This document shows positions 51,395-52,881 of a stretch of DNA of 64,000 bases, piece by piece. Under the pieces are notes generated by a model. The model had not been told where the DNA came from. It saw only the letters and a program-made list of their open reading frames with translations, and did not search any database. The stretch lies in the sequence record ON782582.1, one strand, 5' to 3'. The position numbers were made by a program, and so were the translations under genes. Source of the DNA: Escherichia phage ECP52. How positions within the stretch are numbered: the stretch's first letter is position 1; each line of letters opens with the position of its first letter.

Positions 51395-51597
51395 ATATAA
51401 TTAATAAGATTTTTGGAATTCAATACATTAAGGTCACATATAAAGTAACAGATAAAAATCCATATACTGATGAACATGAAGAACCACAAGTTAAGTCTAT
51501 TATATTAGAAAAGGACCCTAACTGGCCAGTTGAATTTCGTCTTCCTTGCTATGGTCATTGGGCTGATGTTGAAATTATAAGTATTGAAAATGTCTGA
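51391..51597 (+). CDS. Hypothetical protein, 68 aa (30.x region)
   Basis: ATG overlapping the previous stop. Confidence 0.5.
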   Translation: MNIINKIFGIQYIKVTYKVTDKNPYTDEHEEPQVKSIILEKDPNWPVEFRLPCYGHWADVEIISIENV

Positions 51598-52048
51598 GTT
51601 AGAGATTAGAAGCAATTTTAGATGGCCATCGTGTGCATTAAGTAATTTCGCCCAATGGCCTTTCGTCATGGATGGTATTCAATTCGGAGGTCTTGAAGGA
51701 TTCCTCCAAGGATGCAAGGTGAAAAATGTTGAACAACAACGTCGTATATTTAGGCTCTCCGGATTGGCCGCCCAGCAAAGTGGAAGAGCTTATGCAAGAG
51801 CTGCGGACCGTGGGACGCTTTTCTGGCTTGGAATTCCCTTTTCAAGATACTCTGCAGCATGGAAAGAGTTGTATACAAATGCATATTTTGAAGCAGCGAT
51901 TCAAAACAAGGGGTTTCGTGATGCCTTACAAGCCTCTAAAGGAAAAATTTTGAAGCATAGCATGGCTAGTGGTCTAACAAAAGATGATACAATACTAACC
52001 GAAGCTGAATTTATTGATGTGTTAAACCTATTAAGAGACTCTCTATGA
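51590..52048 (+). CDS. YbiA/NADAR-like (DUF1768-type) protein, 152 aa
   Basis: Motif block LSNFAQWPFVMDGIQFGGLEGFLQGCKV resembles the FSNFAAWP...DG...E.YFQAQKF core of E. coli YbiA as I recall it; ATG at 51590 inside the track ORF. Confidence 0.5.
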   Translation: MSELEIRSNFRWPSCALSNFAQWPFVMDGIQFGGLEGFLQGCKVKNVEQQRRIFRLSGLAAQQSGRAYARAADRGTLFWLGIPFSRYSAAWKELYTNAYFEAAIQNKGFRDALQASKGKILKHSMASGLTKDDTILTEAEFIDVLNLLRDSL

Positions 52049-52881
52049 AGCCTACTATTTTGACTGATATTGACGGGGTGTGTTTAAGCTGGCAATCGGG
52101 CCTTCCTTATTTTGCCCAAAAATATAATCTTCCGTTGGAACATATTTTAAAAATGATTCAGGACGAAAAATTTATTTCTCCTGGTAAGCTCTTTAATTGC
52201 GATGAAGAACTTGGTGTTAAATTAATCGAAAAGTATAATCGTTCAGATTTTATTCGCTATTTGTCTCCATATAAAGATGCCCTGTGTGTAATTAACAAAT
52301 TAAAAGAAGATTATAATTTTGTAGCTGTTACAGCACTGGGTGATTCTATTGACGCTCTGCTGAATCGTCAATTTAATTTGAATGCTCTTTTTCCTGGTGC
52401 CTTCTCAGAAGTATTGATGTGTGGTCATGATTCTTCAAAAGAAGAGTTGTTCAAAAAAGCAAAAGAGAAATATAACGTAATTTGTTATATTGACGATCTC
52501 GCTCACCACTGCGATCACGCGAGTGAAATATTAAATGTTCCTGTTTATTGGATGGCTCGAGGGGAGCGTGACAGTATTCCAAAAACTGCACAGCGAGTTT
52601 ATACATGGAATGATGTAGAGAATAAGCTTTTTCCATCGAATGAAAATAAAGAAAGTTTTGATAGTGAAAAAGCTATAAAAGATGTAATTGAAAAGATGAT
52701 TAAAAACGATTCTTTTCCTTGGAACACTACCTGGAGAACTCCTGGATTTAATCCTTATAATCTATATCATCCATATCAGACGCATCCGTTTCAGACATGG
52801 AACTATATTAAACCCGGTGGCATAGAGTATTTGTATAATAGACCTACTAGTGGTGATAATATTTTCCAAGGAGCATTCTAA
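52045..52881 (+). CDS. HAD-superfamily phosphatase/nucleotidase-like protein, 278 aa
   Basis: N-terminal HAD motif I ILTDIDGV; start overlaps the upstream NADAR-like ORF. Confidence 0.55.
   Translation: MKPTILTDIDGVCLSWQSGLPYFAQKYNLPLEHILKMIQDEKFISPGKLFNCDEELGVKLIEKYNRSDFIRYLSPYKDALCVINKLKEDYNFVAVTALGDSIDALLNRQFNLNALFPGAFSEVLMCGHDSSKEELFKKAKEKYNVICYIDDLAHHCDHASEILNVPVYWMARGERDSIPKTAQRVYTWNDVENKLFPSNENKESFDSEKAIKDVIEKMIKNDSFPWNTTWRTPGFNPYNLYHPYQTHPFQTWNYIKPGGIEYLYNRPTSGDNIFQGAF

Follow-up and report, generated by a model that had tools for sequence, protein, structure and literature searches.

Two adjacent T4-type early genes in Escherichia phage ECP52: a probable AdfN orthologue and a predicted HAD phosphatase, gp30.2

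We analysed a stretch of 64,000 nucleotides from Escherichia phage ECP52 (sequence record ON782582.1), referred to here as the window, in which an earlier note made from the sequence alone had described a 152-aa open reading frame (ORF) overlapping the start of a 278-aa ORF with a DIDGV motif. Both ORFs are indeed present at the positions described, on the plus strand, and the motif occupies residues 8-12 of the larger product. They correspond to genes 30.3 and 30.2 of phage T4, and we consider it very probable that this interval holds two neighboring T4 early genes with separate functions, one encoding an orthologue of the anti-DarT factor AdfN and the other a nucleotidase-like phosphatase of the HAD type, gp30.2. 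The central features of the locus are as follows.

51590-52048, plus strand: adfN (T4 gene 30.3), from ATG 51590 to TGA 52048, encoding a 152-aa NADAR-family protein that would act as a DNA ADP-ribosylglycohydrolase, as the T4 orthologue does (PF08010, T4 identity, structural model)
52045-52881, plus strand: T4 gene 30.2, from ATG 52045 to TAA 52881, encoding a predicted 278-aa C1-capped HAD phosphatase with a core of approximately residues 1-200 and a low-confidence C-terminal tail (T4 identity, structural model, profile)
52045-52048, plus strand: ATGA, the 4-nt start/stop overlap of 30.3 and 30.2, read directly from the sequence

The stretch belongs to a Tequatrovirus. The 1.9 kb around both ORFs are 99.5% identical to Escherichia phage vB_EcoM-BECP11, matches to the same 1.9 kb are present in 727 phage records, and the gene order in the window is that of T4: 31, rIII, 30.9 ... 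30.3, 30.2, 30.1, 30 (ligase), alt.1, alt. In the mechanical ORF list the adfN ORF is longer by two codons and begins at TTG 51584; the T4 annotation of 30.3 places the start at ATG 51590, which yields a protein of the same length as that of T4.

The gp30.3 protein and its NADAR fold

The product of the ORF at 51590-52048 belongs to the NADAR superfamily and, within it, to the phage gp30.3 family. It is identical to T4 gp30.3 at 144 of 152 residues (94.7%), both proteins being 152 aa long, and its gene is flanked by the same genes as in T4, 30.4 and 30.2. The protein matches the Pfam family PF08010 (Phage_30_3) over 138 of 138 model positions, with an E-value of 2.7e-67 and a score of 225 bits (cutoff 36). 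The earlier note had placed it in the YbiA/DUF1768 (NADAR) family, PF08719. Against that profile the window protein gave no match at E<=1, and scans of Pfam, NCBIfam and PADLOC returned no NADAR or HAD family match for either window protein; at the profile level the assignment is carried by PF08010 and by a transitive link to PF08719, which is matched by 7 of 54 gp30.3 family members (best E=1.5e-7).

The motif block quoted as the YbiA/DUF1768 core, LSNFAQWPFVMDGIQFGGLEGFLQGCKV, covers residues 17-44 of gp30.3 and had been recognized accurately. It is the only stretch of the protein that matches any solved structure by sequence, and the structure matched is E. coli YbiA (E=0.48 with the single sequence, E=0.0046 with a profile of the 54-member family), in an alignment that spans exactly LSNFAQWPF..DG....EGFLQ..K. 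Several metagenomic homologues of gp30.3 also carry the source name "YbiA (DUF1768 family)". The AlphaFold2 model of gp30.3 has a predicted local distance difference test (pLDDT) score of 94 and a predicted template modelling score of 0.89, and it displays the YbiA/NADAR fold, a helical core with two small beta hairpins at its flanks. The top three Foldseek matches in the PDB are YbiA (2b3w; E=4.6e-5, template modelling (TM) score 0.67), PnNADAR of Phytophthora (8bau), whose structure contains bound ADP-ribose, and the NADAR of G. lovleyi (8bat). All remaining PDB matches have E>1, which leaves these three NADAR structures as the only credible fold matches, in agreement with the family originally suggested. 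Two sites within the protein are of particular functional interest.

51695-51718, plus strand: codons of the AdfN catalytic residues E36 (51695-51697) and K43 (51716-51718), within the EGFLQ..K block; across 54 homologues E36 never varies and K43 is conserved to at least 90%
51956-51958, plus strand: codon of AdfN H123, the last-strand histidine that marks phage gp30.3-type NADARs; invariant in the 54-homologue alignment, in or adjoining model strand 120-122

The function of the T4 protein has been established experimentally. T4 gp30.3 was named AdfN (anti-DarT factor NADAR) by Johannesman et al. 2025, who found that it is necessary for T4 resistance to the DarTG1 system, is sufficient to rescue phage RB69, and is impaired by the substitutions E36A and K43A and by an RB69-like C-terminal truncation (PMC11825919). 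In vitro, T4 gp30.3 hydrolyses guanine-linked ADP-ribose on DNA and not thymidine-linked ADP-ribose; gp30.3 proteins were recognized as a NADAR family of phages whose hallmark is a last-strand histidine, and the NADARs tested all remove ADP-ribose from guanine in DNA (PMC11125620). Full function of AdfN-T4 is seen only when the infecting phage is a T-even; the enzyme fails in uninfected cells and when T5 or Bas25 infects, for which reason the authors suggest that a T-even protein is possibly required (PMC11825919). Transposon insertion sequencing (Tn-seq) of T4, which for DarTG1 covers one system, one host and one growth condition, gives a log2 fold change of -7.25 under DarTG1 for insertions in 30.3 (10.1101/2025.11.20.689424, supplementary file 7). 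Immunity against base ADP-ribosylation, which the earlier note had raised as a possible role, has thus been shown for the T4 orthologue (PMC11825919, PMC11125620).

The allele in the window retains E36, K43, H123 and the C-terminal helix, and the protein is of full length, without the RB69-type C-terminal truncation. It differs from T4 by eight substitutions (with the window residue first and the T4 residue last: R55G, S64A, A67S, A72Q, I82V, A89P, I120V and M125I), none of which falls on a residue named as catalytic in the two papers (PMC11825919, PMC11125620). With 95% identity to T4 and intact catalytic residues, it is expected to be active as well. The predicted enzyme, a small NADAR of one domain, would hydrolyse the N-glycosidic link of ADP-ribose to guanine in DNA, and in this way could erase the marks left by host DarT1 on phage DNA, so that replication would proceed in DarTG1 hosts. 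That a T4-type phage NADAR undoes ADP-ribosylation of DNA bases is correct and biologically important. As a finding it is already known: the prediction dates from 2012-2022 and the demonstration, under the name AdfN, from 2023-2025. The window adds one more allele. Among other phages, tblastn matches limited to residues 1-144 had pointed to truncated 30.3 alleles in the loci L003-L005; translation shows that these are of full length, and the candidates were rejected.

Two further observations concern the immediate surroundings of adfN. Gene 30.4 (51391-51597, 68 aa) overlaps the start of adfN by 8 nt, and its product has no Pfam family in the Pfam scan. In the T4 Tn-seq under DarTG1 it shows a log2 fold change of -1.79 (adjusted p 0.014) and is, among the rows examined, the only gene besides adfN with an adjusted p below 0.05. 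This drop is likely a polar effect, although 30.4 could also be the T-even co-factor of AdfN. The alternative-frame ORF 30.3', annotated in T4 within gene 30.3, is intact in the window (51726-51953, 75 aa). It is 73% identical to its T4 counterpart, as against 95% for the overlapping adfN frame, a pattern that would fit the absence of protein-level selection on the inner frame.

The earlier note also connected the two genes to packaged ADP-ribosyltransferases encoded by two alt genes 3 kb downstream. Two full-length alt paralogues are present in tandem (54849-56942, 697 aa; 56946-59003, 685 aa), and their distance downstream is 2-4 kb, not exactly 3 kb. Their identity to T4 Alt is 70% and 44%, respectively; T4 itself has a single alt gene and a broken duplicate, alt.-1/alt.-2. 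We found no link of 30.3 or 30.2 to the packaged Alt enzymes. The T4 record annotates Alt as a protein ADP-ribosyltransferase, whereas guanine-ADP-ribose in DNA is the substrate of the tested NADARs.

gp30.2 as a predicted capped HAD phosphatase

The product of the second ORF is identical to T4 gp30.2 at 270 of 278 residues and has the same length. The remark of the earlier note that the pair lies outside the characterised functions of T4 is outdated for 30.3 and holds for 30.2: literature searches on gp30.2 returned no relevant reports and no biochemical data, and its PHROG family is listed as function unknown. It belongs to a large family that Pfam does not cover, for which 1438 cluster representatives were retrieved at E<=1e-3. 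We examined its conservation in two alignments, one of 40 homologues (A2) and one of 117 representatives reaching down to ~22% identity (A3). The four HAD motifs are placed as follows.

52066-52080, plus strand: HAD motif I, D8-I-D10-G-V12, with the aspartates predicted to serve as nucleophile (D8) and general acid/base (D10); neither varies among the 40 close and 117 distant homologues
52330-52332, plus strand: HAD motif II, T96, at least 90% conserved in the 40-homologue alignment, at the end of model strand 91-96
52438-52440, plus strand: HAD motif III, K132, invariant in the 40- and 117-homologue alignments, at the end of a model core strand
52492-52497, plus strand: HAD motif IV, D150-D151, both at least 90% conserved in the 40 homologues and D151 also in the 117, at the end of strand 145-150

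Additionally, G11 is invariant among the 40 homologues. Across the 117 representatives D8, D10, R108 and K132 are invariant and W16, N111 and D151 nearly so. W16 (at least 90% conserved) is aligned with F18 of the cytosolic 5'(3')-deoxyribonucleotidase cdN, a residue with a base-stacking role in that enzyme.

The AlphaFold2 model of gp30.2 is confident for residues 1-200, and pLDDT falls below 50 for residues 224-235 and 239-278. The model has a Rossmann-like core of alternating strands and helices, and directly after motif I it places four helices (16-26, 32-40, 46-50 and 54-65) that form a C1 cap. The best Foldseek match in the PDB is mouse cytosolic 5'(3')-deoxyribonucleotidase (2jao, E=1.8e-8). 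At E<=0.001 there are 118 matching PDB chains in total; those listed, 50 in number, are all HAD-type hydrolases and include human cdN and mdN and the deoxyribonucleotidase-like protein of S. epidermidis (3bwv). A comparable picture emerges from the A3 profile, which matches the putative 5'(3')-deoxyribonucleotidase 3bwv over its full length (E=3.8e-7) and other nucleotide phosphatases as well, with cdN and mdN reached only at E ~0.02. Viral structural neighbors other than orthologues carry the annotation 5' nucleotidase, HAD hydrolase or polynucleotide kinase-phosphatase (PNKP).

On its predicted fold and conserved motifs, gp30.2 is a genuine capped HAD phosphatase. The HAD assignment made in the earlier note stands, with conserved catalytic aspartates and a predicted HAD fold. 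The window protein found no family in the Pfam (including HAD and NT5C) or NCBIfam scans, and the HAD matches of distant relatives all stay below threshold (PF00702, E=1e-4; PF13419, E=1.5e-3). As an uncharacterised member of a known superfamily gp30.2 is unsurprising; it is at the same time a widespread and conserved phage HAD phosphatase to which no name has been assigned. By analogy with HAD enzymes, and as far as the chemistry can be read from the motifs, the reaction would be Mg-dependent, with D8 forming a phospho-aspartyl intermediate, D10 serving as general acid/base, T96 and K132 holding the phosphate and D150/D151 holding the metal. The cap and the conserved W16 point to a small nucleotide as substrate, and our guess from the nearest relatives would be that a (deoxy)nucleoside monophosphate is the most likely one.

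One specific form of this nucleotidase reading takes phage T5 as its example. In it, gp30.2 would resemble T5 Dmp, a counter-defence or nucleotide-pool enzyme, and would dephosphorylate deoxynucleoside monophosphates (dNMPs), for instance dAMP, early in infection, either starving Kongming-type immunity or biasing precursor pools. T5 Dmp likewise belongs to the HAD enzymes (motifs DLDGT and IDD) and inhibits Kongming through the breakdown of dAMP (10.1101/2024.12.20.629578). The nucleotidase-like capped HAD architecture of gp30.2 is consistent with such a role, as is the Tn-seq picture, in which 30.1-30.9 are all non-essential in the laboratory. Gene 30.2 tolerates insertions at 72 of 72 sites, with log2 fold changes of +0.34 in the first resampling comparison of the file and -0.10 in M9, and its dispensability on E. 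coli K-12 in LB and M9 is what would be expected of a conditional anti-defence gene. However, the T4 Tn-seq sheets examined contain no 30.2 phenotype with any defence system, and a general dNMPase would be wasteful for T4, which reuses host-derived dNMPs. Homology between gp30.2 and T5 Dmp was also tried and could not be detected, although both are HAD enzymes: hhalign of A3 against T5 Dmp gave a probability of 2% (E=0.025, 59 columns), so that there is no detectable family relationship. A Dmp-like role is attractive by analogy, but we regard it as unlikely.

Beyond the core, gp30.2 of many T4-like phages ends in a tail that is modelled with low confidence and is otherwise variable, but in which one element is conserved.

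52816-52848, plus strand: conserved GGIEYLYNRPT, gp30.2 residues 258-268, identified by alignment and motif count

The tail motif G[ITV]EY..QPT occurs in 15 of 56 long-tailed gp30.2 homologues, against 0.1 expected from shuffled tails. In its family form, GTGIEYL..QPT, it always lies 16-20 residues before the C-terminus of the homologues that carry it. From its sequence and position it looks like a docking motif. The tail might then tether a nucleotide phosphatase to the phage replication/repair complex or to a host target, where gp30.2 would serve conditionally in counter-defence or in shaping nucleotide pools, much as T5 Dmp does against Kongming; this proposal is a tentative one and we hold it to be doubtful. 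Some distant members of the gp30.2 family are fused to long extra regions (P0254, 591 aa; P0311, 660 aa; P0207, 430 aa; P0245, 365 aa), in which we found no Pfam match and no informative partner domain.

Genomic context of 30.3 and 30.2

Downstream of 30.2 the string of genes continues as follows.

52881-53150: gene 30.1, a small gene between 30.2 and the ligase gene
53147-54610: DNA ligase gene (30), downstream of 30.1

The earlier note had put forward 30.3 and 30.2 as a putative, functionally suggestive hydrolase pair, and the 4-nt overlap of start and stop codons would be in favor of such a pair. Two versions can be formulated: a two-step pathway in which the NADAR enzyme releases ADP-ribose or a phosphorylated derivative that the HAD enzyme then processes, or an arrangement in which gp30.2 is the T-even factor of AdfN-T4. 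The overlap, however, is common to all neighboring genes. Overlaps of 1-8 nt are found at 30.6/30.5, 30.5/30.4, 30.4/30.3, 30.3/30.2, 30.2/30.1, 30.1/30 and 30/alt.1, which together form an unbroken chain from 50910 to 54792. Because every junction from 30.6 to alt.1 overlaps, the overlap is not evidence for a functional pair; the ATGA reflects the tight packing of a string of early genes and not a dedicated two-enzyme pathway. Two further elements were observed upstream of 30.7: at 50403-50432 a sigma-70-like promoter close to consensus (11/12), and at 49996-50017 a hairpin resembling a terminator. The sigma-70 promoter scan returned 23 sites against 22.4 expected from shuffled sequence, i.e. 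no enrichment.

We then turn to the conservation of the neighborhood in other phages. Viral loci were fetched with both family profiles (159 in total) and scanned by tblastn, a neighborhood being defined as 2.5 kb. Gene 30.2 lies within 2.5 kb of ligase in 69 of 73 loci and within 2.5 kb of 30.3, which is upstream of it, in 35 of 73, including phages at only 40-50% identity. The recurrence in these 35 loci is in favor of a pair, but taken together the two counts tie 30.2 to ligase and not to the NADAR gene. In loci anchored on the NADAR gene, 30.2 is nearby in 20 of 67 and absent within 2.5 kb in the other 47, and among NADAR-anchored loci below 50% identity it is nearby in 8 of 55. The zero-gap arrangement of 30.3 and 30.2 is confined to close relatives (30.2 identity of ~66% or more). 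In several complete genomes the NADAR and HAD genes are 50-60 kb apart, with the HAD gene still beside ligase, so that the HAD gene keeps its place where the NADAR gene is located elsewhere. In the locus L027 (6001-6450 of IMGVR_UViG_638275429_000001) and similar ones, the NADAR gene is found in a ribonucleotide-reductase cluster, between a glycyl-radical protein gene and nrdB/nrdA, and NADAR genes of this type are ~60 kb from the 30.2-ligase pair. Because it sits in the nrd cluster, far from 30.2 and ligase, in some T4-like genomes, the NADAR gene has changed its location within the genome.

The requirement of AdfN-T4 for T-even infection bears on the second version of the pair. AdfN-T4 fails outside T-even infections and a T-even protein is possibly required, and RB69, which AdfN-T4 rescues, belongs to the T-even set that carries the same gene region (PMC11825919); both facts would suit gp30.2 as the missing factor. 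The Tn-seq data argue against it, since under DarTG1 the log2 fold change of -7.25 for 30.3 contrasts with -0.12 (p=0.61) for 30.2. On these data and the synteny, gp30.2 was rejected as the missing T-even co-factor of AdfN. A two-step pathway meets the additional difficulty that ADP-ribose, the product of NADAR hydrolysis, offers a HAD phosphatase no phosphomonoester as a target. Taken together, four lines of evidence (the generic overlap, the synteny, the genomic separation and Tn-seq) indicate that 30.3 and 30.2 are probably not a functional pair. A pair acting against DarTG1 is largely refuted, and we consider either version, pathway or co-factor, very improbable. Since gp30.2 is probably not the T-even factor of AdfN, the result may spare others an obvious and probably fruitless experiment.

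Several points weigh against our interpretation of two separate functions. The Tn-seq comparison refers to the one DarTG1 system, host and growth condition given above. Adjacency of 30.3 and 30.2, often at <=200 bp, is found in about half of the 30.2 loci, including fairly distant T4-like phages at 40-50% identity, and may reflect a looser functional link. AdfN-T4 is fully active only in T-even infections and appears to require some further factor. The activities ascribed to the window alleles of AdfN and gp30.2 come from comparison with relatives, and the subfamily assignment of gp30.2 is a prediction from profile and fold comparison, without a Pfam HAD or NT5C match of its own. Finally, synteny among T4-like phages is partly inherited, which makes it weak evidence for the ligase link.

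With that reservation, we propose that gp30.2 belongs with DNA ligase and the DNA-metabolism neighborhood rather than with AdfN. In distant phages the HAD gene is found among the genes for gp32, gp59, UvsY, EndoVII, PhoH and ligase. Such surroundings raise the possibility that gp30.2 is a 3'-phosphatase that heals nucleic-acid ends, similar to the HAD domain of PNKP, and prepares nicks for the ligase encoded two genes downstream. The ATP-dependent DNA ligase gene beside 30.2 in 69 of 73 loci, with a linkage that persists despite changed gene order in L156, L158 and L159, would fit this role, as would the replication and recombination genes (gp32, gp59, UvsY, EndoVII and a PD-(D/E)XK nuclease) that surround it in distant phages; the weak similarity to phrog_415, a polynucleotide kinase entry of PHROG (E=0.0045), and the PNKP-type phosphatases among the viral fold neighbors (E ~1e-6) point in the same direction. 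HAD enzymes that act on macromolecules are, however, generally without a C1-type cap, and gp30.2 is predicted with high confidence to have a four-helix C1 cap after motif I instead of a cap-less active site. By sequence and by fold it comes closest to capped nucleotidases of small molecules and not to PNKP, T4 already has PseT for the removal of 3'-phosphate, and synteny within a single lineage is partly inherited. An end-healing role is therefore improbable in our view, and a nucleotidase-like phosphatase that is independent of AdfN remains the preferred reading of gp30.2.

Comparison with known systems

The closest known system is AdfN of T4, which shares with gp30.3 of the window the gene, locus, length and NADAR fold; given the eight substitutions that separate the two alleles, equal activity is an expectation from their similarity. 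The same fold and EGF.Q..K core are also shared by YbiA (2b3w) and by the NADAR antitoxins associated with DarG1/DarT1 (the BC4488 family and the G. lovleyi protein 8bat). These groups differ in the residue of the last strand, which is H123 in the phage gp30.3 family, a glutamate in YbiA and an aspartate in DarG1-type NADARs (PMC11125620). Unlike the DarG1-type antitoxins, gp30.3 is an orphan without a linked toxin, and in cells that are not infected, DarT1 is not neutralised by AdfN-T4 (PMC11825919, PMC11125620).

For gp30.2 the nearest known enzymes are the 5'(3')-deoxyribonucleotidases of the NT5C type (cdN/mdN structures 2jao, 2i7d and 1mh9, and 3bwv). They share with it the capped HAD fold, a motif I of the form D-x-D-G-V, an aromatic residue at +8 (W16 in gp30.2, F18 in cdN) and the DD of motif IV. 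Identity to these enzymes is only 15-19%, with TM scores of ~0.64-0.70 on the target, and gp30.2 differs from them in having its own R108 and N111 and an extra tail of ~80 aa with a conserved motif. T5 Dmp, another HAD phosphatase encoded by a phage, is comparable to gp30.2 in size and has DxDG and IDD motifs. Its motif I reads DLDGT, compared with DIDGV in gp30.2, and its gene lies in the pre-early first-step-transfer region of T5; the resemblance between the two would be one of functional analogy only.

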